Source: Patescibacteria group bacterium (GTDB taxonomy: Bacteria > Patescibacteriota > Microgenomatia > UBA8517). Taken from it: DNA of 64,000 bases. Made by a program: the position numbers and the translations under genes. The notes beneath the pieces were generated by a model that did not search any database, was not told where the DNA came from, and worked only from the letters and a program-made list of their open reading frames with translations. Numbering within the stretch: position 1 is the first letter of the stretch; every line of letters begins with the position of its first letter. The stretch is taken from assembly GCA_035260845.1 (NCBI GenBank), contig DATFUL010000008.1, positions 5,709 through 69,708 on the forward strand, given 5' to 3'. Shown here piece by piece: positions 559 through 58,133 of the stretch.

Positions 559-643
559 CTACCACATATTGGTATTTCAGTAATTCGGTATTTCGGTTTA
601 CAGTTACCGATGACTGAACTACTGGAGTACTGAAATACTGAAA
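559..643. repeat. Palindromic intergenic repeat, copy A (GGTATTTCAGTA...TACTGAAATACTG)
   Basis: Imperfect inverted repeat with nested hairpins. About 85% identical to copy C at 47605-47689 and shares its core with copy B at 1703-1757. Confidence 0.6.
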
Positions 644-1702
644 ATGAAACACTTAATTTGGCCCTTACTAATTTTCCTAATTGTCTTCCGGTATTTTACA
701 ACCCGTCCCATCTACAATAATGGTGACAAAATAAGAATTACCCAAACTGTTTATACTGACCCCGTCATTTATCCAACTTCTCAGTACATTAATCTTTCTG
801 GACTTAAAGTTTATTTACCTCTTTTTCCAGAGGTTTCTTACGGACAGAAAGTTGTTGTTGAGGGAGTAGTCGAAAAAGGCAAATTAAATAATCCAAAACT
901 CATTAATATTTATGAAAACCACAATTTTGCTGTTAGTTTCAGAAATAAAATAGTTGAACTTTATTTAGAGACACTGCCACAACCTATGGGCGGACTCCTA
1001 TCCGGAATAGTTATTGGTAGTAAAGGCGCCCTAACTCAAGATTTTTATAACCAAACAAAACTAACTGGAGTTGCACACGTAGTTGTAGCATCAGGAACAA
1101 ATATTACTTTTGTGGTTGCATTTTTAATGGGTATATTAACTTTAATTATGCCAAGGAAAAAAGCGATAGCCTTTATTATATTAGGTATTATTTTGTATCT
1201 ATTTATATCGGGTTTTCAAGCACCACTAATTAGGGCTGCAATCATGTCTTCTTTTATATTCCTGGGCCAGACGACAGGTAGAGTAGTCTTAACTTGGCGA
1301 ATTTTCTTTATAACCGGCTTTGGCATGCTTATTTATAGACCGGATTGGATTCTTGATATCGGTTTTATATTATCTTTTGTTTCAACTGCAAGCCTGATGC
1401 TATTTGAGAATAGAATTAGGAATTATCTTAAAAAAGTGCCGGAGGTTATTAAAGAAGGCCTTTCCACCTCTCTTGCGGCGCAAATTGGAGTCGCTCCGAT
1501 ACTATTTGTTACATTTGGACAGTTTAATATACTATCTCCAATCATCAATGCACTTGTTCTTTGGACAGTTCCATATCTAATGATCTTAGGCTCAATTGGA
1601 GGAGTTGTGGGTTTAATTGTGCCTGGCTTGGGCAGAGTTATACTTTATTTGAGCTACCCACTTTTATGGTGGTTTATAACTGTAGTCTCAATTTTCAGTT
1701 AA
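644..1702 (+). CDS. comEC: ComEC/Rec2 N-terminal and polytopic membrane (competence) domain, separate ORF
   Basis: 352-aa multi-TM protein with typical ComEC channel-domain composition. Sits directly after comEA and before a ComEC-type metallo-beta-lactamase ORF in the same frame. Confidence 0.65.
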   Translation: MKHLIWPLLIFLIVFRYFTTRPIYNNGDKIRITQTVYTDPVIYPTSQYINLSGLKVYLPLFPEVSYGQKVVVEGVVEKGKLNNPKLINIYENHNFAVSFRNKIVELYLETLPQPMGGLLSGIVIGSKGALTQDFYNQTKLTGVAHVVVASGTNITFVVAFLMGILTLIMPRKKAIAFIILGIILYLFISGFQAPLIRAAIMSSFIFLGQTTGRVVLTWRIFFITGFGMLIYRPDWILDIGFILSFVSTASLMLFENRIRNYLKKVPEVIKEGLSTSLAAQIGVAPILFVTFGQFNILSPIINALVLWTVPYLMILGSIGGVVGLIVPGLGRVILYLSYPLLWWFITVVSIFS

Positions 1703-1757
1703 TCAGTATTTCAGTAACTGCAAACTGAAATACTGGAATACTGAAGTACCGAAATGC
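1703..1757. repeat. Palindromic repeat copy B (CAGTATTTCAGT-aactgcaa-ACTGAAATACTG), occupying the gap between the comEC halves
   Basis: Perfect 12-bp stem with an 8-nt loop. Same core as copies A and C. The gap is 51 nt (a multiple of 3) and carries three in-frame stops. Confidence 0.55.
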
Positions 1758-2638
1758 AAATTTGGAAATACATCTACGGATTTTTAACTTTGATTCTTGT
1801 AGGTCTAATTATTGCCATATTCCAAATTCCAGATTCTAACCTGCATATAATTGTTTGTGATGTTGGTCAGGGAGACGCAATCCTCATTACTTATAAAAAT
1901 ACACAAGTGTTGACGGATGGCGGCCCAGACCAAAAGGTCATTAGTTGTCTTTCTAAATACATGCCGTTTTGGGATAGAGAAATAGAGCTTGTTATTTCGA
2001 CCCATCCCGATGCTGATCACTCAACAGGGCTTATAGATGTAATTAAAAGATATAACGTGGATAAAATTGCAATTAGCCCAATCGACTCTGGCACTCAGAC
2101 TATCAAAGCGCTAGAGAATGCGGTGGGGGGTCGAGGGGTAGAGGTACTTACACCAGTAGATGGCATGAGGTTGGGGTTGGGTATGATCTATTTGGATATA
2201 GTGAACCCAAGCCATAATCAAATAGGTTCCTTGAGTCAAAAAGTAGATGGCAGTCCGCTTGGTTTTTTTAAGCCAATTGATGCTACAAACGAATACTCAA
2301 TTAGCTACAAACTTAGCTTCGGAAGCTTCTCAGGTCTTTTCACTGGAGACTTTGGCCAGGGGGTAAGTGATAGGCTAGCATTGGAAAACAAAATCGGATC
2401 GGTTAACTATATCAAAGTGCCACACCATGGAAGTCGCAACGGATTAACCGAAAATCTCCTCAAGCAAATCATGCCCAAATTTGCGGTAATCAGTGTAGGC
2501 AAGAATAACCGTTACGGTCATCCACATAAGGAAATCTTGGATATGCTAAATAAATACAATGTAAAAATATTTAGAACAGATGAAGTTGGGGATGTTGGTT
2601 TGGTAACTGATGGAAAGAATTACTGGATTAAAAATTAG
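1754..2638 (+). CDS. comEC: ComEC C-terminal metallo-beta-lactamase (MBL) domain protein
   Basis: VCDVGQGDAILI, STHPDADH and PHHGSRNG motifs of the ComEC/Rec2 MBL domain. N-terminal TM helix. Same reading frame as the 644-1702 ORF. Confidence 0.75.
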   Translation: MQIWKYIYGFLTLILVGLIIAIFQIPDSNLHIIVCDVGQGDAILITYKNTQVLTDGGPDQKVISCLSKYMPFWDREIELVISTHPDADHSTGLIDVIKRYNVDKIAISPIDSGTQTIKALENAVGGRGVEVLTPVDGMRLGLGMIYLDIVNPSHNQIGSLSQKVDGSPLGFFKPIDATNEYSISYKLSFGSFSGLFTGDFGQGVSDRLALENKIGSVNYIKVPHHGSRNGLTENLLKQIMPKFAVISVGKNNRYGHPHKEILDMLNKYNVKIFRTDEVGDVGLVTDGKNYWIKN

Positions 2639-2923: not shown

Positions 2924-4600
2924 ATGCTTAAAAGTGAGCTTGAGAAAATATTAGGTTACGAGGTTGAAGCTACAGAAAACTCTGATTTTGGTGACTATTC
3001 TAGTAATGTGGCCTTAAGCCACAAACCTCCAAGAGAATTTGCCGAAATGGAATTAGTTAAGTTAAAAGCCAATAAAAAACTTAATGAATTCGTCGATAAA
3101 ATAGAGATTGCCGGCCCAGGATTTATTAACTTTTGGCTAAAACGCGATGTACTAGTAGGCAATTTGACACAGATTGTTGAGGAAAAAGAAAAGTATGGAA
3201 CTAACGACACAGGCAAAGGAAAATTGGCAATTGTTGAGTATTCTTCACCCAATATTGCTAAGCCTTTTACAGTTGGGCACTTAAGGTCAACCATAATTGG
3301 TGATGCTGTTGCCAACTTACTTACCGCTTCAGGTTGGAAAGTTATGCGCGATAATCATCTTGGTGATTGGGGAACACAGTTTGGCAAGCAAATCTATGCA
3401 ATCAAAGCTTGGGGTAACGAGGAAGAAATAGCAAAATCAGAAAATCCTGTTAAGGAGTTGGTTGCTTTATACGTAAAATTTCATGAAGAAGCAGAAAAAG
3501 ATCCTTCAATTGAAGACGGTGCCAGGGCTTGGTTCAAAAAATTAGAAGATGGAGACCAAGAGGCTAAACGGTTGTGGCAAAAGTGTATTGACTGGAGTTT
3601 TGTCGAATTCGACAAAATTTATAGCACTCTTAATGTTTCGTTTAGTGATGAATTTGAAGGTGGCCGCGGCCTTGGAGAAAGTTTTTTTGAGAGCAGAATG
3701 GGAATAGTTATAGATGAACTTACTAAAAAGAGGCTCTTAAAAGTAGGTAAAGAGGGTGCAAAGCTTGTATTTTTCCCCAAAGACAAATATCCGGCGCTTA
3801 TGATTGTTAAAAAAGACGGCGCAACTCTTTACGCAACACGTGACTTGGCAACGGATAAATATAGGAAAGAAAAATACGATCCAGACCTTATTATTAACGA
3901 AGTTGGGAGTGAGCAAGCTTTATATTTTAGACAAATTTACGAGACAGAAAAGCTCTTGGGATGGTTTAAGGATGAGCAAAGGGTTCATATTGGCCATGGA
4001 TTAATTCGTTTTAAGGAAGGTAAGATGTCTACCCGTAAAGGAAATGTTATCTGGATGGAAGAAGTTTTGAATGAAGCCCTTAGTAGGGCCAAAAAACTGG
4101 GCTCTGATAGCGAAAAACTAATTAAAGAAGTTGCAATTGGAGCCTTGAAATATAACGATCTAAAGCGGGATTCAAAAACAGATATTGTTTTTGACTGGGA
4201 CGAAATATTAAACATGGAAGGCAATAGTGGACCTTACTTACAATATACAGTTGCAAGGACAAACTCCGTCCTTTCAAAAGCACGAAGCACGATGCACGAT
4301 GCACGAGATGTTTCGGATTTCGATATTCGGACTTCGAATTTAAACGACGAGGAACTCGGAGTTCTTAGGACTTTAGTCCGATTTCCTGAGGTAATTGCCA
4401 CTGCATCCAAAAATTACTCACCCAACTTATTGTGTAATTATCTTTACGATTTAGCACAAAAATATAATGGTTTCTATAACGCCCACAAGATTATCGGTGG
4501 TGAGAATGAAGAGTTTAAGTTAGAACTAACAAAGGGAGTTGGCCAAGTCCTTAAAAATGGTCTCAAACTTCTTGGAATTCAAACTCCGGAGAAGATGTAG
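2924..4600 (+). CDS. argS: Arginine--tRNA ligase
   Basis: Class I aaRS. PNIAKPFTVGHLRSTIIGD (HIGH-like) and KMSTRKG (KMSKS-like). Length and architecture match ArgRS. Confidence 0.9.
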   Translation: MLKSELEKILGYEVEATENSDFGDYSSNVALSHKPPREFAEMELVKLKANKKLNEFVDKIEIAGPGFINFWLKRDVLVGNLTQIVEEKEKYGTNDTGKGKLAIVEYSSPNIAKPFTVGHLRSTIIGDAVANLLTASGWKVMRDNHLGDWGTQFGKQIYAIKAWGNEEEIAKSENPVKELVALYVKFHEEAEKDPSIEDGARAWFKKLEDGDQEAKRLWQKCIDWSFVEFDKIYSTLNVSFSDEFEGGRGLGESFFESRMGIVIDELTKKRLLKVGKEGAKLVFFPKDKYPALMIVKKDGATLYATRDLATDKYRKEKYDPDLIINEVGSEQALYFRQIYETEKLLGWFKDEQRVHIGHGLIRFKEGKMSTRKGNVIWMEEVLNEALSRAKKLGSDSEKLIKEVAIGALKYNDLKRDSKTDIVFDWDEILNMEGNSGPYLQYTVARTNSVLSKARSTMHDARDVSDFDIRTSNLNDEELGVLRTLVRFPEVIATASKNYSPNLLCNYLYDLAQKYNGFYNAHKIIGGENEEFKLELTKGVGQVLKNGLKLLGIQTPEKM

Positions 4601-8578: not shown

Positions 8579-8634
8579 CAGGGTTCAATTCATCTCCAAA
8601 GCAAGTTTGGAGTTTTCTTGAATCCTGTTATAAT
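8579..8634 (+). promoter_or_regulatory. Conserved promoter module: CCAGGGTTCAATTCATC + hairpin + TTCTTGAA + extended -10 TGTTATAAT
   Basis: Same architecture and spacing recur at 19669-19724. -10 at 8626-8634. The downstream mreB ATG is at 8645. Confidence 0.45.
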
Positions 8635-8644
8635 CGTCCTACGT

Positions 8645-9652
8645 ATGCTCCGAAAGAATATTGCAATAGATTTGGGAACCGCAAATACCCTCGTTTGGGT
8701 GGCTGGTGAAGGCTTAGTTGTAAATGAACCCACAGTTGTTGCTATCTCCTCAGAAGACAATAAAGTTGTGGCTGTTGGTGAAGAAGCTAAGCTCATGCTT
8801 GGACGTACCCCCGAGGCTTTAATTGCCAGCCGTCCCATGCGTGACGGGGTTATTGCTGATTACCAAGTAACCGAGGCAATGCTGCGTTATTTTATGGGTA
8901 AAGTTACTGGCCGTTTTCAGTTTTTTAAGCCTGAAGTTATGGTCTGTGTGCCTGCAGGGTGCACTCAAGTTGAACGCCGTGCGGCTTTAGATGCCACTAT
9001 GTCGGCCGGGGCTGCACATGCCTATTTAATTGACGAACCCTTAGCTGCCGCAATTGGTGCTGGAATTCCGGTTTCTGCTCCTTCTGGGCACATGATAGTT
9101 GATATTGGTGGGGGCTCAACTGAGGCTGCTGTTATTTCACTGGGTGGTGTGGTTACCCATAAATCGGTCCGTGTTGCGGGAAACAAAATTGATGAGGCAA
9201 TTCAAAGCTATCTTAAAAAGAAACACAATTTAATAGTGGGGGACCAAACTGCAGAGGAAATTAAGCTCAAAATAGGTTCAGCAACAGCTCTAGCCAAAGA
9301 GGAACGTTTAGAAATTTCCGGCCGCGACCTAGTTTTTGGCCTCCCAAGAAGTGTAGTTATAACAAGTACTGAGGTAACCGAGGCTATTCATCCTGTTTTG
9401 ATGCAAATAATTGGGGGGGTTAAAGGGGTTTTAGAGGACACGCCACCCGAGCTAGCCGCTGATATTATAGATAAAGGCATAGTAATGAGCGGTGGGACTT
9501 CCACTTTAAGAAATTTTGATAAACTAATGACAGAAGAAACTGGAGTTCCAGCCCACGTTGCCGACGAGCCCTTACTTTGTGTTGTTCGTGGCACGGGACT
9601 AGTTTTAGAGAACATTGAACTTTGGAAGAGAAGCATAACTAACAAGAGATAG
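8645..9652 (+). CDS. mreB: Rod-shape-determining actin homologue MreB (paralogue 1)
   Basis: IAIDLGTANTLVWVAGEGLVVNEPTVVAI, DIGGGSTE and actin-fold phosphate motifs. The ORF-track start at 8618 is a TTG; the ATG at 8645 is more likely. Confidence 0.85.
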   Translation: MLRKNIAIDLGTANTLVWVAGEGLVVNEPTVVAISSEDNKVVAVGEEAKLMLGRTPEALIASRPMRDGVIADYQVTEAMLRYFMGKVTGRFQFFKPEVMVCVPAGCTQVERRAALDATMSAGAAHAYLIDEPLAAAIGAGIPVSAPSGHMIVDIGGGSTEAAVISLGGVVTHKSVRVAGNKIDEAIQSYLKKKHNLIVGDQTAEEIKLKIGSATALAKEERLEISGRDLVFGLPRSVVITSTEVTEAIHPVLMQIIGGVKGVLEDTPPELAADIIDKGIVMSGGTSTLRNFDKLMTEETGVPAHVADEPLLCVVRGTGLVLENIELWKRSITNKR

Positions 9653-10089
9653 TCGATAACATGAGTTTCATCTACGCTATGGGGTGTATATGATTTGATA
9701 GACTTTACAAAGTTATAGGTGTTATAAAATCAAGTTATAAAAAGTTATAAAGTAAATAATCTAGAATTTAGGAGCATGTTTGCTCAGTCATAAGTAAATC
9801 GCTCATAGTATTGCATACAGGAAAGCAAAGTATTCTGGATAGATTGAGGATAAGTATTTTTACATAGGATCAAAAAAAGAGTCAAAAAATTGTTCAAAAG
9901 TGTGTATTTAATCGCGTAGGAGTGCACCTATTTTTACCTGTAGTATTAGTGATTTTAGACTAATAAACAATATACTATATACGATATCAGAAATTGAATA
10001 TAGGATACAATGGCCTGCGGTAAAAGTGAGGCTAATAGTAGAAAACTCAAAAGTTATAAGTCAAAAGTCAAAAGTTTAGACAAAATATT

Positions 10090-15516: not shown

Positions 15517-16977
15517 ATGCAGGCTTTCAAAAACAAAACCATTCTCCAAATCTTAGATAAATATAAAGATCTTTGGGCCATAGGCCATGTATCCGCAGTT
15601 TCCCATTGGGACTTGGAAACTTACATGCCACAAAAGGGAGCTGGAGCAAGAGGACAGGCACTTGGCCGGCTAGCAACTATCCGCCAAAGATTGTTCCTCG
15701 ACCCAGCCTTCACCAAATTGTTGGTTTCGGCGGGCAAGCAAAAGTTAAACGATCAGGAAAAAGCAGTTGTGAGAACACTTGTTAGGGCCTTAAAGTTTTA
15801 TGAGAAGCTGCCATCAAAATTTATAGAGGACTTTGAGATTTTAACCAATAAGGCTACAGTTGTTTGGCGTGAGGCTAAGGAAAAGAATAACTTTAAAATC
15901 TTTGAAAAAGACTTGGCCAAAATATTCGACATGAATAAGCAGGCGGCAGAGTACTTGGGTTACAAAGATTCGCCCTATGATGCACTTTTAGATCAATTTG
16001 AAGAAGACTTAACTAGTAAGGAAGTCGAATCATTCTTCAGTGAAATAAAACAACCACTTAAAGACCTGTTGGGGAAGATCAAGAACTCTAAAAATTATCA
16101 AAAAACACACTTCCTTGAAAAGGCAAAATATGATCGCTCAAAAATAGAAACTCTTAACACTAAGATACTAAAAACTCTCTGGAGCGATATGGAACGGTTT
16201 AGACTAGATATCTCAAGTCATCCTTTTACAACCTCCTTTTCTAATACGGACACCCGTATAACTACATGGTATCACAAGACCGATTTCGGTAGAAGTCTCC
16301 TCGCCACTGTTCATGAATTTGGCCACGCGCTTTATGACTTGCAATCTGCGGATGAACTCGAGATGACTCCTATTGAAGGAGGTTCGTCCCTCGTAATTCA
16401 TGAATCACAAAGCAGATTTTGGGAAAACTTTATAGGTAGAAGTGAACCTTTTATCCAATTTATATTAAAAGATGCAAGAGAAGCTGTTAAAACAAACATT
16501 TCAGCTTCCGATATTTATTCCTATTTTAATAAAGTTAGACCTGGACTTCTAAGAGTTGAGGCCGATGAAGTTACCTACCACTTCCACATAATGCTTAGGT
16601 ATGAGATCGAAAAAGGATTAATTGAAGGTAAACTCAAAGTCCGTGATTTACCCGAGATTTGGAATGCAAAAATGAAGGAATATTTAGGTGTTACCCCCAA
16701 AAAAGACTCAGATGGAGTTTTACAGGATATTCACTGGAGCGGGGGAATGGTGGGGTACTTTCCAACTTATTCACTCGGAACGTTCTTAGGAGCGCAGTGG
16801 GAGGAGAAGATGAATCTAGAATCTGGAATCAAGAATATAGGGAAGATAGAAAGCTGGCTCAAGGAACACATACATAAATATGGTTCAACTTACACAATGC
16901 TGGAGCTCCTCACGAAAAATAAAATGAAGTTTGATCCTAGTGTGAACTTAAATTATTTAAACAAGAAGTACTCTTAA
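15517..16977 (+). CDS. M32 carboxypeptidase (Taq-type metallocarboxypeptidase)
   Basis: HEFGHALYD (HExxH), HESQSRFWEN, LLRVEADEVTYHFHIMLRYEIE and DIHWSGG are M32 signatures. Confidence 0.8.
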   Translation: MQAFKNKTILQILDKYKDLWAIGHVSAVSHWDLETYMPQKGAGARGQALGRLATIRQRLFLDPAFTKLLVSAGKQKLNDQEKAVVRTLVRALKFYEKLPSKFIEDFEILTNKATVVWREAKEKNNFKIFEKDLAKIFDMNKQAAEYLGYKDSPYDALLDQFEEDLTSKEVESFFSEIKQPLKDLLGKIKNSKNYQKTHFLEKAKYDRSKIETLNTKILKTLWSDMERFRLDISSHPFTTSFSNTDTRITTWYHKTDFGRSLLATVHEFGHALYDLQSADELEMTPIEGGSSLVIHESQSRFWENFIGRSEPFIQFILKDAREAVKTNISASDIYSYFNKVRPGLLRVEADEVTYHFHIMLRYEIEKGLIEGKLKVRDLPEIWNAKMKEYLGVTPKKDSDGVLQDIHWSGGMVGYFPTYSLGTFLGAQWEEKMNLESGIKNIGKIESWLKEHIHKYGSTYTMLELLTKNKMKFDPSVNLNYLNKKYS

Positions 16978-17547: not shown

Positions 17548-17744
17548 TCTTCTTTCTTGGCTCCGAGCTTTGCTCGTAGTAAAAAAGAAGCTGTCCTCTG
17601 GCTTCTAGGCATGCAAAGTAAGGAAGAAAAACTCTTCAAATTCGAAGTACGAAGTACGAATTTCGAAACAAATTCCAAACGTTTTGAAAATTCAAATTTA
17701 GAAATTTGACACTGTTTCGATATTAGAATTTCGTATTTAATATC

Positions 17745-29252: not shown

Positions 29253-29902
29253 TGGCTCTTCCAGATTTCTCCTTTGAAAATAAACTCCATAAGTTGGGTT
29301 ATAAATTAATTGCCGGGGTGGATGAAGTTGGACGCGGCTCATTCGCTGGTCCGGTTGTTGCAGGAGCAGTCATTCTGAATAACCAAATCTACAAATCTGC
29401 AAATCTACAAATTAAGATTAATGACAGTAAAAAACTTTCAAAGAAGCAAAGAGAAGTTGCGGATAAATGGATTCGGAAAAATGCGATCGCTTTTGGAATT
29501 GGCCAGGCCAGTGTTGCCCAAATAAATAAATTTGGGATCAAGAAAGCAACTGAAATTGCATTCAGAAAAGCCATAAAAAATTGTGGAATTAGAATAGATT
29601 ATCTTTTAATCGATGCTTTTTACATTCCGTACGTCAAAGGCTTAAGGCGTAAAAATCAAAAGGCGATAATAAAAGGGGATTCAAAATCAGTTTCCATTGC
29701 AGCGGCCTCAATTATTGCCAAGGTTTACAGGGATGATTTGATGACTCGTTTATCAAAACAATCAAAGTATAAAAAATATAGCTGGCACAAAAATATGGGC
29801 TACGGCACAAAAGACCACAGAAATGCAATCCAAAAATATGGGGCTACTAAACTACATAGGAAGTTATTCGTTAGAAACTGCGTTTCTTCTCAAGTTGAAT
29901 AG
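29252..29902 (+). CDS. rnhB: Ribonuclease HII
   Basis: LIAGVDEVGRGSFAGPVVAGAVIL and DSKKLS are RNase HII active-site motifs. Confidence 0.85.
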   Translation: MALPDFSFENKLHKLGYKLIAGVDEVGRGSFAGPVVAGAVILNNQIYKSANLQIKINDSKKLSKKQREVADKWIRKNAIAFGIGQASVAQINKFGIKKATEIAFRKAIKNCGIRIDYLLIDAFYIPYVKGLRRKNQKAIIKGDSKSVSIAAASIIAKVYRDDLMTRLSKQSKYKKYSWHKNMGYGTKDHRNAIQKYGATKLHRKLFVRNCVSSQVE

Positions 29903-46370: not shown

Positions 46371-46527
46371 TTAGCCATTCTAACGTACTTGAATAAGCAA
46401 ATCTACAAATAAGCAAATATTTGCAGATTTTGAATTTGGATATTTGAATATTTTGTCTGAGTGGGTATACTGCGTTGCGTATAAGCAGAGCTTGGCAAAA
46501 TAATATTTATATGAAAGGAGAAGTTTT

Positions 46528-47601
46528 GTGAAATTTAAATTAATTAATCCAATTGATCGCTTCTTAGGACTTTTCTCGCACGATATTGGAATAGATTTGG
46601 GAACTGCAAACACTTTAGTTTATGTACTGGGTAAAGGAGTTGTAATTCGTGAACCTTCAGCTGTTGCACGGCATAAAAAAACAAAAGAAATTTTAGCAAT
46701 TGGGGCTTCCGCTAAAAAGATGTATGGCAGAGCGCCTTCGACAATTGAGGCAATTAGGCCACTACGAGACGGGGTTATTGCAGACTTTGACGCAACGGCC
46801 GCAATGCTTAAGTATTACATTAAAAGAGTTCACGAGGGGGGTACCGTTATACCAAAGATTCCGCGCCCCAGGGTAATTGTTGGAATCCCATCAGGAGTCA
46901 CCGAAGTTGAAAGACGGGCCGTTGCTGATGCTGTAATGGACGCCGGGGCCCGAGAAGTTTATTTAATAGAAGAACCTATGGCTGCTGCAATCGGAGCAAA
47001 ATTGCCCGTAGAAAGCCCCGAGGGCAATTTTATAGTCGACATTGGTGGCGGAACTTCTGAAATTGCTGTAATTTCTTTGGGAGGAATTGTTTTGGGCCGC
47101 TCCGTGCGCGTTGCGGGGGATGAAATGGACGAGGCAATAATTAATTATGTAAGGCTTAAATACTCTCTTCTTTTAGGTCAACCAACCGCCGAGGCTGTAA
47201 AAATTGGGATTGCCTCAGTTGTAACAGAAAGCGGGGAAGCAAAACAAAAGTTTACTGTTGTACGCGGGCGTGACCTGGAAACTGGTTTACCCAAATCAAT
47301 AAAACTTACAAATAACGAAATTGGGGAAGCCCTCTCCCCAATAATTCAAGAAATTATAGTTAATATCGTGGATACTTTGGAAGAAACTCCACCCGAACTT
47401 ACAAGTGACATAATGGAGCGGGGAATTACACTTGCAGGAGGAGGCTCACTTTTGCCTGGAATCGATAAAGCAATTTCAGAAGCCACTCATATGCCGGTTT
47501 GGATCGCCGAGGACCCGTTAACCTGCGTAGTTAGGGGTTGCGGTGCGCTTCTGGAAAATCCAGAACTATTAAAAAGAGTTAGAGTAACAAAAGGTCTCTA
47601 A
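46528..47601 (+). CDS. mreB: MreB (paralogue 2), adjacent to PBP2
   Basis: IGIDLGTANTLVYVLGKGVVIREPSAVA, DIGGGTSE and LAGGGSLLPG. Confidence 0.85.
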   Translation: MKFKLINPIDRFLGLFSHDIGIDLGTANTLVYVLGKGVVIREPSAVARHKKTKEILAIGASAKKMYGRAPSTIEAIRPLRDGVIADFDATAAMLKYYIKRVHEGGTVIPKIPRPRVIVGIPSGVTEVERRAVADAVMDAGAREVYLIEEPMAAAIGAKLPVESPEGNFIVDIGGGTSEIAVISLGGIVLGRSVRVAGDEMDEAIINYVRLKYSLLLGQPTAEAVKIGIASVVTESGEAKQKFTVVRGRDLETGLPKSIKLTNNEIGEALSPIIQEIIVNIVDTLEETPPELTSDIMERGITLAGGGSLLPGIDKAISEATHMPVWIAEDPLTCVVRGCGALLENPELLKRVRVTKGL

Positions 47602-47604
47602 AAT

Positions 47605-47689
47605 CGGTATTTCAGTAGTTCGGTATTTCTGTTTGCAGTTTACCGATAACTGAATTACTGGAATACCGGAATACTGATAAAATGAGTAT
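47605..47689. repeat. Palindromic intergenic repeat, copy C
   Basis: CGGTATTTCAGTAGTTCGGTATTTC...GGAATACCGGAATACTG. About 85% identical to copy A over ~72 nt. Confidence 0.6.
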
Positions 47690-49312
47690 ATGAATTCTTT
47701 TTCTTCTAATAATGATTCCTGGCTTTCTTGGTTTTTAAGGGGAACTTTAATTCTTCTTTTTTTAATCCTTTTTGCCAAACTTTTTGAAGTTCAAATAATT
47801 AAGGGGAACTTTTATAGAAGTCTTTCCGAAGAAAATAGAATTCGCCATATTCCGCTTCCCGCAGCTCGTGGGAAAATAATGGCCCGCGGCGGGGAAGCAC
47901 TAGCTGATAACGTTGCAATTAAAAAAGCAGTTAAATTTACTCCGGGGGCCCCGGCTGTTCTTTCTGAAGATCTAACAAATGCGAATCCAGATGAAATTGT
48001 TACGGATTATAAAAGAGTTTACCCATTGGCTGAAAACTTTGCCCATGCATCTGGGTATTTGTCAGTAGTATCCGATAAAGAGGTTGGTACAGTGGACCCA
48101 GATTGTCCAGAGAAAGGAATAAGACCAAGTGGAATGTTGGTAGGAGTCACCGGACTTGAACAAGAATATGAATGTCAGCTCTTGGGAATTCCAGGGGAGG
48201 AACTGGTAGAAGTTAATACTGCAGGCAAAAAAATTAGAGTTTTGGGAGTCAAGAATCCTGTTCCTGGAACCAACTTAAAAACATCAATTGACTTCGGGCT
48301 TCAAAAGGAACTTGCTATTAATATGGATAAAAAAGGGGCAGCTATTGTGACTGATCCAAATGGTCAAATCTTAGCTTTTTACTCAAGCCCCAGTTTTGAT
48401 CCAAATCTTTTAATAAATAAAGATAATCCCGAAAAAGTTTCGGCACTTCTTAAAAATTCTGACCTTCCATTTTTTGACCGGGTAATAAGCGGAACTTTCC
48501 ATCCAGGGTCGGTTTTTAAGCCATTAGTTGCAATTGCAGCACTTGAAGAAGGCGCAATCGATAAAGATTTTACGTTTAACGATCCGGGAATAATTACTGT
48601 TAATAAATTTACCTACACCAATTGGTATTTTACGGAATATGGAAGACTGGAAGGTGTAGTTAACTTAGTTAAAGCACTGGCCCGCTCTACTGACACATTC
48701 TTTTATAAAGTTGGGGAAATGGTTGGACCAGTTAACATTGCCAAATGGGCCGATGTTTTTGATTTAGACAAACAAACTGGAGTGGATTTGCCTGGAGAAG
48801 CAAAAGGGTTAATCCCAACTCCTGAATGGAAACAAAAAACAATTCATGAGGGCTGGTTTTTAGGCAATACTTACAACATGTCTATTGGCCAGGGTGACGT
48901 TTCTGTAACCCCGATTGAACTCAATACTTATATTTCAGCAATTGCCAGTAATGGGAAGCTTTGCCAGCCACAATTTATTTTTTCTTCGTCTCCGGTTTGT
49001 AGGCAAATAAGAATTGCTCAAAATAATTTAGACTTAGTAAAAGAAGGCATGCGTGCAGCTTGTACAACAGGCGGAACCGCTTACACTTTTTTTGATTTTA
49101 GTGCCAAGCACGGTGGAACCACAGTAGCCTGCAAAACTGGAACCGCTGAAGTTGGAGTAACGGGAGAACCAAATGCCTGGTTTACATTTTTTAGCCCAAT
49201 CGAAAACCCTCAAATAGTTTCAACAATTGTTTTTGAAAAGGGTGGGCAAGGATCAGAAGTTGCGGGCCCGGTTGCTAGGAAAATTGCAGATTATTACTTC
49301 TCTTCACGATAA
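47690..49312 (+). CDS. mrdA: Penicillin-binding protein 2 (elongasome transpeptidase)
   Basis: N-terminal TM. SVFKP (SxxK), a SxN-like motif and KTGTAEV (KTG). Confidence 0.85.
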   Translation: MNSFSSNNDSWLSWFLRGTLILLFLILFAKLFEVQIIKGNFYRSLSEENRIRHIPLPAARGKIMARGGEALADNVAIKKAVKFTPGAPAVLSEDLTNANPDEIVTDYKRVYPLAENFAHASGYLSVVSDKEVGTVDPDCPEKGIRPSGMLVGVTGLEQEYECQLLGIPGEELVEVNTAGKKIRVLGVKNPVPGTNLKTSIDFGLQKELAINMDKKGAAIVTDPNGQILAFYSSPSFDPNLLINKDNPEKVSALLKNSDLPFFDRVISGTFHPGSVFKPLVAIAALEEGAIDKDFTFNDPGIITVNKFTYTNWYFTEYGRLEGVVNLVKALARSTDTFFYKVGEMVGPVNIAKWADVFDLDKQTGVDLPGEAKGLIPTPEWKQKTIHEGWFLGNTYNMSIGQGDVSVTPIELNTYISAIASNGKLCQPQFIFSSSPVCRQIRIAQNNLDLVKEGMRAACTTGGTAYTFFDFSAKHGGTTVACKTGTAEVGVTGEPNAWFTFFSPIENPQIVSTIVFEKGGQGSEVAGPVARKIADYYFSSR

Positions 49313-49351: not shown

Positions 49352-50434
49352 ATGACTGATAAGGAATATCTAATTGCTCTAAGTACCTTCGTCTCGATTG
49401 GTCCAATGCGGACAAAGCTCCTTCTTTCTTATTTTAAGTCAGCTAGCAAAGTTTGGAAGGCAACCCAAAAAGATTTGTTGGAAGTAGGTCTTCCGGCAAA
49501 ATTAGTAGATAAATTTATTGACCACCGCAGTAAATTTGATATTCAAAAATATCTTGATAATTTAAAAAAAGAGTCAGTTTCGGCTTTAACAATTAATGAT
49601 TCTGATTATCCTGAAAACTTAAAAAGTATTGATGATAATCCATACGTTTTGTATGTTAAGGGCAAATTACTAAAATCGGATTCCCGGGCAGTCGCAATTG
49701 TTGGGACAAGATTAATGACTAGCTACGGGCGGGAAGTAACCCAGAAAATTGCAACAGAACTTGCCAATTTCGGCATAACTGTAATTTCTGGTTTAGCGCT
49801 TGGGGTTGATGCTGAGTCTCAAAGAGCAACCCTTAATGCGGGTGGGCGTACTATTGCTGTTCTTGCCTCGGGACTTGATATTATTTCACCATTAACCAAT
49901 AAAGCTCTCGCCCTGGAGTTTATTAAGAAGAACGGCGCTATTGTTTCAGAATATCCTTTAGGGCATACTCCTTTTCCATCGGATTTTCCGGTTCGGGACC
50001 GTTTAATTTCCGGACTTTCAAAGGCTGTAGTTGTAATTGAAGGCAGAATGAAAAGTGGAACTTTTTATACCGTTCACGCAGCTGCGAGTCAGAACCGGCC
50101 AGTATTTGCTGTTCCCGGGCCAATCACTTCACCCGCTTCGGAGGGACCAAATTATTTAATTCAAAATGGGGCAAGACCAATTACGTCAGCCCGGGATGTT
50201 CTGGATGAACTGCATATGCAGTTAAAAGTTGATACTCGCGCTATTGAAAAAATTATGCCAACAAGTGGAGTTGAGGCTAAAATTGTGGAAATATTGGAGG
50301 TTGAACCTTTACATCTTGACGAGCTTGTTAGAATATCAGGTATAACGACCTCTGAAGTTTCTGCTAGACTTACTATCATGGAAATGAAGGGACTAGTAAG
50401 AAATATGGGCGGGGGCATCTATAAAAGAATCTAG
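49352..50434 (+). CDS. dprA: DNA processing protein A (DprA/Smf)
   Basis: AIVGTRLMTSYGREVTQKIATELANFGITVISGLALGVDAESQRA (Rossmann-like DprA core) plus a C-terminal winged-helix domain. Confidence 0.85.
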   Translation: MTDKEYLIALSTFVSIGPMRTKLLLSYFKSASKVWKATQKDLLEVGLPAKLVDKFIDHRSKFDIQKYLDNLKKESVSALTINDSDYPENLKSIDDNPYVLYVKGKLLKSDSRAVAIVGTRLMTSYGREVTQKIATELANFGITVISGLALGVDAESQRATLNAGGRTIAVLASGLDIISPLTNKALALEFIKKNGAIVSEYPLGHTPFPSDFPVRDRLISGLSKAVVVIEGRMKSGTFYTVHAAASQNRPVFAVPGPITSPASEGPNYLIQNGARPITSARDVLDELHMQLKVDTRAIEKIMPTSGVEAKIVEILEVEPLHLDELVRISGITTSEVSARLTIMEMKGLVRNMGGGIYKRI

Positions 50435-50469
50435 AATCTAGTAGCTAGTATCTAGTTTCTAATACGAAT

Positions 50470-57335: not shown

Positions 57336-58133
57336 ATGGCAATAATTTTTGATGGTAGAAAGTTTGCAGCAGAAAAGGAAGTGGCTCTACAAATCCGTGT
57401 CTTAGGCCTTAAAACTCGTGGAGTCCACCCTAAACTTGCCTCAATTTTGGTAGGTAAAGACCTGGCAAGTGAACTTTATGTGAATTTAAAGAAAAAGGCA
57501 GCAGAAAGAATCGGCGCCGAGGTTGATATTTACAAAATTTCAGAAAATTCTAAATTGGAAGATCTTAAGTTGCTTATAAAGACATTAAACGAAGACGAAA
57601 TGGTAAATGGAATAATGATTCAGATGCCAATTCCAGGAAAATTAGGAGAATCTAAAGAAGAAATTGTGTCAGAAATTGATTCCGAAAAGGATGTTGATGG
57701 CCTTAAGGAAGATAGTCAATTTCTTCACCCCACAAGTAAGGCAATTATGGAAGTACTTAAAGTTGCCGAAAGGCAGCTGGACCGCAAAATGAAGTCTGTT
57801 TGTGTGGTTGGCGCAACAGGAATGGTGGGTAAACCCCTTGTTAAGGAGCTTAAAGAGGAAAATTACGAAGTAATTGAGTGTAATACAAAAACCCCCGATC
57901 TAAAGGCAAAAACTTTAGAAACAGATGTTGTGGTCAGTGTTACTGGTAGTCAAAATATAATTACAGGGGAAATGGTTAAAGATGGAGTAGTTGTAATCGA
58001 CGTAGGTTCACCCCAGGGGGATGTGGACTTTGCCTCTGTATCTAAAAAGGCTGATTTTATTTCTCCGGTCCCAGGTGGGGTTGGTCCTGTCACAATTACT
58101 TGCCTACTTGAGAATTTGATCTCAGCATGTTAA
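57336..58133 (+). CDS. folD: Bifunctional methylene-THF dehydrogenase / methenyl-THF cyclohydrolase
   Basis: LASILVGKDLASELYV, VVGATGMVGKPL and SPVPGGVGPVT. Confidence 0.85.
   Translation: MAIIFDGRKFAAEKEVALQIRVLGLKTRGVHPKLASILVGKDLASELYVNLKKKAAERIGAEVDIYKISENSKLEDLKLLIKTLNEDEMVNGIMIQMPIPGKLGESKEEIVSEIDSEKDVDGLKEDSQFLHPTSKAIMEVLKVAERQLDRKMKSVCVVGATGMVGKPLVKELKEENYEVIECNTKTPDLKAKTLETDVVVSVTGSQNIITGEMVKDGVVVIDVGSPQGDVDFASVSKKADFISPVPGGVGPVTITCLLENLISAC

Follow-up and report, generated by a model that had tools for sequence, protein, structure and literature searches.

The stretch of DNA analysed here, referred to as the window, is 64 kb of a Candidatus Woesebacteria genome (Microgenomates, Patescibacteria; candidate phyla radiation), and together with 5.7 kb and 9.7 kb of flank it brings the sequence read for this genome to ~79 kb. 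At its left end lie the competence genes comEA and comEC, the latter present as two adjacent open reading frames (ORFs) with a short palindromic repeat between them. The subject of this analysis is the relation between the repeat and the two-part gene, that is, whether the repeat has broken comEC or has come to lie between two genes that were already separate. The 3' part of comEA occupies positions 1-558 of the forward strand (Pfam HHH_3 at 1e-12; stop codon 556-558), and the window edge removes 69 nucleotides (nt) of its 5' end. The full gene encodes 208 amino acids (aa) with SLBB and HHH_3 domains and is intact in locus L081. An earlier, sequence-only reading of the window had described both comEA and dprA as intact, which is right for dprA (49352-50434) and, for comEA, right of the full gene in L081 but not of the copy cut by the window edge.

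Downstream of comEA, on the same strand, follow the N-half of comEC, coding for the Competence or channel domain (ORF1; 644-1702; 352 aa; PF03772 Competence at 5.5e-44 over residues 123-351), and the C-half, coding for an N-terminal transmembrane (TM) helix and a metallo-beta-lactamase (MBL) nuclease domain (ORF2; 1754-2638; 294 aa; PF00753 Lactamase_B at 8.8e-10). The hydrophobic helix at the N terminus of ORF2 is MQIWKYIYGFLTLILVGLIIAIFQI, the ORF has its own ATG, and motif II of the nuclease domain reads HPDADH, at residue 84. Both ORFs begin at a position equal to 2 modulo 3 and hence share a frame. The gap from 1703 to 1753 measures 51 nt (17 codons), and the in-frame stops at the junction are the TAA of ORF1 at 1700 followed by a TAA at 1715 and a TGA at 1742, both within the gap. 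On all of these points, namely the two ORFs and their domains, the common frame, the length of the gap and the separate helix and start codon of the MBL ORF, the sequence-only reading is borne out. The junction is base-for-base the same in two more independent assemblies (Logan SRR5258706 and JGI 3300002907), and this agreement among three assemblies excludes an assembly artefact.

The two-gene comEC and the age of its split

With one genome taken for each species, scanning yielded 80 related loci from Candidatus Woesebacteria, Microgenomates, Woykebacteria and WWE3, and the 78 in which both comEC halves were found entered the comparison of junctions. In every one of the 78, the halves are separate, adjacent ORFs, and they are broken at the same residue. 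Most of these junctions consist of an overlapping or abutting stop and start, usually out of frame and without a repeat; the types seen include ATGA (-4, 13 loci), a 1-nt gap (10 loci), TAATG (-1, 7 loci) and overlaps of 34-40 nt (12 loci). Where relatives do have a spacer of at least 19 nt, it is in frame in 6 of 17 cases, near one third, so that the shared frame of the two halves in the window is a matter of chance.

Both halves also behave as proteins in their own right in homology searches. With the two ORFs fused into a single query, all but two of the top 120 matches examined (51-72% identity) are N-halves of 355-377 aa that carry the Competence domain only; the two exceptions, P0073 and P0114, match the C-half. 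In an alignment of 27 sequences the N-halves terminate at one common position, ...WWFxxVxxF(S/N/G), and the end of ORF1 in the window, ...WWFITVVSIFS, coincides with that of the 26 aligned relatives. For the C-half, ORF2 was compared, without a profile, with 1.84 billion cluster representatives, and of the best 150 matches examined 148 are standalone proteins of ~250-340 aa that align with ORF2 N terminus to N terminus. Among relatives the start of ORF2 is conserved as M-(K/Q/R)-x-W, and MBL motif II is kept as H-x-[DQE]-x-D-H. The split in 78 of 78 loci, the standalone halves and the conserved start and motif II of ORF2 together argue that the two-gene comEC is old and under purifying selection. 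As far as sequence comparison can tell, the split is ancient and functional and predates this species, and the hairpin at the junction did not break the gene.

These results bear directly on the proposal of the sequence-only reading that an insertion had converted one comEC into two cistrons, with pseudogenisation in progress as a further option. Alignment to the comEC of relatives, which have the two-ORF form without any repeat, contradicts the conversion, and a decaying gene would be hard to reconcile with the conserved start and motif II of ORF2 and with a C-half family that stands alone. We consider it extremely improbable that the recent in-frame insertion of a mobile palindromic element split a single comEC, possibly starting its pseudogenisation: the shared frame, the gap of exactly 17 codons and the identity of the gap as a copy of a dispersed repeat would all fit such an event, but the break falls at the same residue throughout Woesebacteria, Woykebacteria and WWE3, mostly without a repeat, each half has standalone homologues, the start and the catalytic motif of ORF2 are conserved, and only about a third of the long spacers are in frame. 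A false lead is thereby removed: no decay is apparent in the genes, and no mobile element is in the course of interrupting comEC. The view that the repeat is a secondary addition at the junction did stand, the ancestral junction being ~0 nt in most relatives. The account that we regard as very likely is that of an anciently split comEC, whose junction of ~0 nt was later filled by ~51 nt of a species-specific palindromic repeat.

In the canonical single-chain ComEC/Rec2 of B. subtilis and M. thermoacetica (PMC8579336, PMC6299819), as at this locus, the order is a Competence channel domain, then a TM helix, then an MBL nuclease domain; motif II is of the Asp-containing form H-x-D-x-D-H, and the gene adjoins comEA. 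This ComEC type of motif II, with Asp in the place of a His ligand, is required for nuclease activity and transformation (PMC8579336). The Competence domain of such proteins is found in ORF1 and the MBL domain with its ComEC-type motif II in ORF2, but the domains are not on one polypeptide, either here or in any of the 78 relatives: unlike in the canonical proteins, the MBL domain and its TM anchor form a separate gene product in the sampled Microgenomates, WWE3 and Woykebacteria. Patescibacteria of the Microgenomates type presumably rely on the uptake of DNA, and in them the ComEC nuclease domain is predicted to come routinely as a gene product of its own, anchored in the membrane. About half of ComECs are reported to lack the C-terminal nuclease domain, in the account that PMC8579336 gives of PMC6299819, and domain censuses that score a ComEC as lacking this domain may miss split versions such as these.

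Two junctions among the relatives are built differently. In L060 (5033-5779) the comEC halves lie 747 nt apart, with an apparent inserted small ORF in between. In L014 (5060-5181; Woesebacteria GW2011_GWB1_39_10) the junction between the halves carries a distinct, GC-richer element of 122 nt with a long stem, TGTCATTGCGAG...CTCGCAATGACA, which is not a short-period array.

A family of palindromic repeats in operon spacers

The repeat at the comEC junction is one of three copies, here named E1, E2 and E3, all on the forward strand of the window. E2, the copy at the junction (1693-1753), is the shorter one. Its core consists of CAGTATTTCAGT (1704-1715) and ACTGAAATACTG (1724-1735), exact complements that form 12 bp around an 8-nt loop, in agreement with the perfect hairpin described by the sequence-only reading. 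The stems predicted for the RNA pair 1693-1699 with 1740-1746 and 1703-1715 with 1724-1736, leaving 1716-1723 as the loop. The 5' arm overlaps 10 nt of the 3' end of ORF1 and runs into its last codons, making use of the native end ATT TTC AGT TAA (conserved ...IFS*). The ORF1 stop UAA (1700-1702) falls within an internal bulge, and the base of the stem is separated from the ATG of ORF2 by 7 nt (1747-1753). The minimum free energy (MFE) of E2 is -23.5 kcal/mol (z = -5.1), and 0 of 200 shuffles fold equally well.

E1 (571-643) fills the spacer between comEA and the N-half of comEC and was recognised as an inverted repeat; Tandem Repeats Finder (TRF) gives its arms a period of 8. It is composed of a left array, (TCRGTnnn)x3 at 571-597, and a right array, (ACTGRnnn)x4 at 613-643, and its RNA hairpin (575-643) closes right against the ATG at 644. 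E3 (47605-47677) lies in the spacer between mreB and PBP2, both assigned by Pfam; its hairpin pairs 47605-47624 with 47649-47668, and the repeat ends ~12 nt upstream of the ATG at 47690. On the forward strand the MFE is -35 kcal/mol for E1 (z -8.0) and -32.2 kcal/mol for E3 (z -5.7), compared with -22.5 and -21.8 kcal/mol on the reverse strand; for both, the sense strand folds 11-12 kcal/mol better, via G.U pairs. E1 (571-642) and E3 (47605-47677) are ~88% identical over 73 nt, the asymmetric loop included, and this identity implies copying between loci. The alignment of E2 with E3 scores 58 as the reverse complement and 37 in direct orientation, suggesting that E2 is probably inverted relative to the other two copies.

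Common to all copies are 8-nt units with a conserved pentamer core, arranged as (nnnTCRGT)n - loop - (ACYGRnnn)n, and the variation within the pentamer consists of transitions that preserve pairing through G.U. The copies start with (T/C)GGTATTTCAG and finish with ...ATACTGA. All three fill short spacers of co-directional genes and end at or near the downstream ATG, the array ending at -1 in E1 and, in E2, at -1 when taken as a whole and at -8 for its stem. TAAAAT is present on both sides of E3, whereas the flanks of E1 and of E2 do not match. With up to two mismatches allowed, the 12-mer of the repeat occurs 18 times in the window, against an expectation of 6.7 +/- 2.5, and this count is not attained in any of 100 shuffles. 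Of these occurrences, 16 fall into clusters at 570-640, 1704-1751 and 47605-47676, and two are isolated elsewhere in the window. The enrichment of the 12-mer and the related copies uphold the claim of the sequence-only reading that the gap holds a member of a genuine hairpin repeat family. Further copies were found neither in the 15 kb of extra flank of this genome nor in 645 kb from 80 related species, and on these comparisons the E1-E3 family is real and species-specific.

Searches of Rfam at the gathering threshold and at E <= 1 returned only tRNAs and sub-threshold generic hairpin matches, and no family for the elements. As candidate functions, an intrinsic terminator and an internal promoter were rejected, since no promoter- or terminator-like consensus and no terminator T-run is present inside the elements, and a reading of the unit as a -10-like AATACT is inconsistent with its spacing to the ATGs. 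A DNA-uptake sequence was likewise rejected on the confinement of 16 of the 18 12-mer matches to the three elements. No features matching attC sites, integrons or CRISPR were noticed, and these readings were not followed further. Among the matches listed in a 21-mer scan of metagenomes, most were to unrelated contigs, many of them high-GC, and did not add to the sequence of this genome.

E1-E3 are a newly found, species-specific family that falls within an established class of repeats, small and either palindromic or of short period. Like REP/BIME/REPIN, Correia, ERIC, BOX and RUP elements, they are dispersed imperfect palindromes of ~50-75 nt which lie between co-directional genes, are presumably co-transcribed with them, occur in either orientation and are restricted to a species or lineage. 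They differ in the absence of the GTAG/CGTC end tag of REP and REPIN (PMC3733652) and in their internal 8-nt periodicity. As to miniature inverted-repeat transposable elements (MITEs), the flanks of E3 could represent a target-site duplication, one that is not seen consistently among the three copies. In contrast to the Rickettsia palindromic elements, E2 is not read through within its host ORF, with stops at 1700, 1715 and 1742.

The nearest precedent is the TAACTGA heptamer direct repeats that MacGregor 2015 (PMC4679880) reports from marine Beggiatoaceae, cyanobacteria and some Bacteroidetes. Those repeats likewise consist of short tandem units with an ACTGA core, their forward arrays stop 1 to a few nt short of start codons in spacers without a Shine-Dalgarno (SD) motif, and there are arrays that reach into the end of the preceding ORF or lie inside ORFs; their function is unknown, and translational regulation via binding of proteins of the S1, Csp or CsrA type has been proposed (PMC4679880). 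The unit here is, however, 8 nt long (AATACTGA / ACTGAAAT; consensus ACTGAAAT) as opposed to 7 nt, and only 3 copies are present in 79 kb. Moreover, the forward array is here combined with an upstream inverted array to give a hairpin, whereas of 170 sets in BOGUAY 1 is inverted, with no predicted structure (PMC4679880). TAACTGA doublets are absent from the window and from 82 related loci.

The surroundings of E3 provide a minor observation. The window encodes two MreB paralogues (8618-9652 and 46528-47601), and the second is directly followed by PBP2 (47690-49312) and dprA; neither mreC nor mreD can be recognised between them.

Possible roles of the junction hairpin

If E2 is co-transcribed with its flanking genes, the transcript would fold into a stem of ~20 bp at the junction. 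Translation of ORF2 would most likely depend on termination-reinitiation, given the near absence of SD motifs in the genome (SD-like motifs stand at a functional distance in only a few of the ~62 window genes) and the overlapping stop and start codons of the relatives. A ribosome terminating at the UAA (1700-1702) would melt the 5' arm of E2, and the fold would bring stop and start to within ~14 nt of path length of each other; with the two so close, coupling could survive the insertion of 51 nt. E2 may be a structured regulatory hairpin, an alternative offered by the sequence-only reading, and it may equally be neutral, or modulate the stability or processing of the mRNA. Modest support for structure at the RNA level comes from the relatives: among 18 co-directional spacers, folding favours the sense strand in 12 and the antisense strand in 5 (Wilcoxon p = 0.024).

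Several points count against this account of the junction or narrow what can be drawn from it. About 60 of the 78 relatives have no spacer of any kind and manage without a hairpin, which is hence not required. The sense-strand folding bias could stem from transcription-associated C-to-T mutation instead of selection, and E2 shows no difference between the strands in how well it folds. In a statistic of base pairs that bridge stop and start, real spacers performed no better than shuffles, and it is not used as evidence. As regards the repeat itself, the copy number of three covers only the ~79 kb of genome read, and the alternatives for the arrival of E2 are a transposition-like insertion, gene conversion from another copy, and slippage seeded on the native TTTCAGT. 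Finally, the co-transcription of E2, its folding in vivo and its effect on coupling are all inferred.

It is a serious possibility, though one that we would not call probable, that the element is purely selfish or neutral, a small REP- or MITE-like repeat or a product of slippage that is kept only because intercistronic insertions are harmless. This would agree with its absence from most relatives, with its differing presence in two of the closest relatives recovered and with the unrelated sequences that occupy the junction across species, as well as with the similar arrays that essential proteins, among them arginyl-tRNA synthetase (ArgRS), carry in tolerant linkers and with array units that are often seeded by the local stop-codon region. 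A purely neutral repeat would not by itself explain why the hairpins take up the spacer exactly, reaching from stop to start, why the sense strand folds better and why the same two junctions have been colonised repeatedly; these observations are suggestive and not decisive.

In other bacteria, the REP sequences of malE-malF act as a barrier to 3' exonucleases, and Correia elements serve as an RNase III site. By analogy, the hairpin might be an intra-operon element for mRNA processing or stability that sets distinct levels of comEA, comEC-N and comEC-C. A stable hairpin between co-directional genes, with neither a terminator T-run nor a promoter, is what such an element would look like, and a hairpin is present in the comEA|comEC-N spacer not only of this genome but also of at least 10 relatives. 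The two ComEC halves, however, are expected to be needed 1:1, and overall we regard this role as unlikely.

Extremely improbable, too, is programmed translational bypassing, for which T4 gene 60 and the mitochondrial byps elements are the models and which would yield a fused ComEC through take-off at AGU 1697-1699, skipping of the hairpin and landing at the in-frame AGU 1745-1747; the matched codons 48 nt apart, the UAA (1700-1702) right after the take-off site and the stable hairpin that begins there amount to formal mimicry only, with AGT being part of the TCAGT repeat core and a match hence expected by construction, whereas in relatives the halves are in different frames or overlap by up to 40 nt, making a fused product unneeded, and, unlike in gene 60, the downstream segment has its own conserved ATG (M-x-x-W), belongs to a standalone family and is not conserved in fused form.

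Short-period arrays across the clade

The junction hairpin of this genome is part of a wider phenomenon. A census of tandem arrays (at least 3 units at 85% identity or more) in the window and the 80 related loci, 709 kb in total, found 109 arrays of period 7 where ~5 are expected, a ~20-fold excess, and 7 arrays of period 8 compared with 0 expected; for periods of 5, 6 and 9-12 enrichment is absent or slight. The units are diverse, with 76 different canonical units among 121 arrays in these Woesebacteria as against the one dominant heptamer of the TAACTGA repeats. Many arrays are paired as inverted arrays, giving hairpins that span the spacer from stop to start. Hairpins of unrelated sequence occupy the junction between the comEC halves in L046 and L054 (spacer 52 nt in each), L017 (79 nt), L035 (81 nt), L078 (96 nt), L008 (105 nt), L070 (106 nt) and L204 (110 nt; MFE -47.9 kcal/mol), and the hairpin is found at different junctions in two relatives that are among the closest recovered (~72% amino-acid identity). 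This pattern points to fast turnover of the elements and to repeated, independent colonisation of these junctions.

The arrays often bear a trace of the gene upstream. Their first unit frequently duplicates the last bases of that gene together with its stop codon, as in L070 (5085-5110, AAGTTAA-AAGTTAA) and L204 (3675-3700, CGGATAA..CGGATAA), and duplications of the stop-codon region are also seen at the L046 and L054 junctions and in the window at 1691-1702, TTTCAGT-TAA-TCAGTATTTCAGT. Such duplications hint at local slippage seeded on the stop region, or at microhomology-guided insertion.

Within coding sequence, the clearest example is the ArgRS ORF (2924-4600), which contains in-frame heptamer arrays at 4278-4341, AAGCACG x4 and then TTTCGGA x4. 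They sit in a variable linker, 13-38 aa long across genomes, after ...ARTNSVLxKA and before EEL..LR, and in many relatives the same site holds a heptamer array whose unit differs from genome to genome (L017 8004, L034 4773, L043 7699, L051 7968, L052 7856, L067 7264 and others). The leucyl-tRNA synthetase (LeuRS) upstream of comEA has a like pattern of heptamer arrays in several loci. Elsewhere in the window, where arrays are listed at 10042-10075, 16812-16840, 17638-17738, 29382-29415, 46392-46453 and 50426-50461, CGAAGTA and its inverse stand between convergent genes, a GCAAATCT/AGATTTGC array lies between divergent genes upstream of mreB, and an AGAATCT palindrome is present between dprA and the next gene. 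An AAAAGTC x5 array is found 14 nt upstream of an ATG, and arrays of CAAATCTA x3.6 and GAATCTA x4 are located within ORFs.

Cyanobacterial short tandemly repeated repetitive (STRR) sequences and the long simple sequence repeat (SSR) heptamer arrays of bacteria, to the extent that they are summarised in Rehm et al. 2015 (PMC4692102), resemble these arrays in that period 7 is strongly over-represented and mostly intergenic, in that inverted pairs able to form stem-loops sometimes occur, and in that length and sequence vary among close relatives at one intergenic site. Set against that summary, the present arrays differ in belonging to Patescibacteria and in having AT-rich rather than G-rich units, and E1-E3 stand apart as a dispersed family of 73 nt whose loop is conserved, which makes them more than a local SSR. 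A literature search found no description of a period-7 array excess for Patescibacteria. The ~20-fold excess of heptamer and octamer arrays in these tiny genomes, with hairpins at operon junctions and arrays in the linkers of essential enzymes, extends the poorly understood class of STRR- and TAACTGA-type repeats to a new phylum. This clade-wide array and hairpin phenomenon, along with ComEC as a two-subunit system in Microgenomates, is the more interesting residue of the analysis, and the junctions offer compact natural test cases for translation across structured spacers in SD-less operons.

A broader and rather improbable idea is that the 7-8-nt periodic hairpins constitute a functional class of intercistronic RNAs in SD-poor bacteria, allowing reinitiation across spacers of 50-110 nt and perhaps also acting as platforms through their ACTGA cores. 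Pairing of the upstream stop region with the region 5' of the downstream AUG would then amount to a bacterial analogue of ribosome shunting, and arrays of an ACTGA core plus 3 variable nt could bind a conserved single-strand RNA-binding protein of the cold-shock or S1 type. If true, the platform idea would connect the elements of Woesebacteria to the TAACTGA repeats known from Beggiatoaceae and cyanobacteria, as well as to hairpins of high-GC contigs.

Such hairpins were seen in unrelated high-GC metagenome contigs (GC 0.53-0.64), which were picked by an ACTGA-containing pattern. They are intergenic and of the form (nnnTCAGT)n ... (ACTGAnnn)n, a constant pentamer core with 3 variable nt, and an arm contains as many as 7 units (L164 3830-4030, L156 5260-5400, and L083, L155, L090, L172, L095, L118 and L149). 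As to the translation signals of the window itself, many of its genes have a TATACT/TATAAT-like hexamer at a distance of 6-9 nt upstream of the ATG, as at 57336, 5199, 12291 (- strand) and 59946, a sequence pattern that suggests leaderless transcripts.

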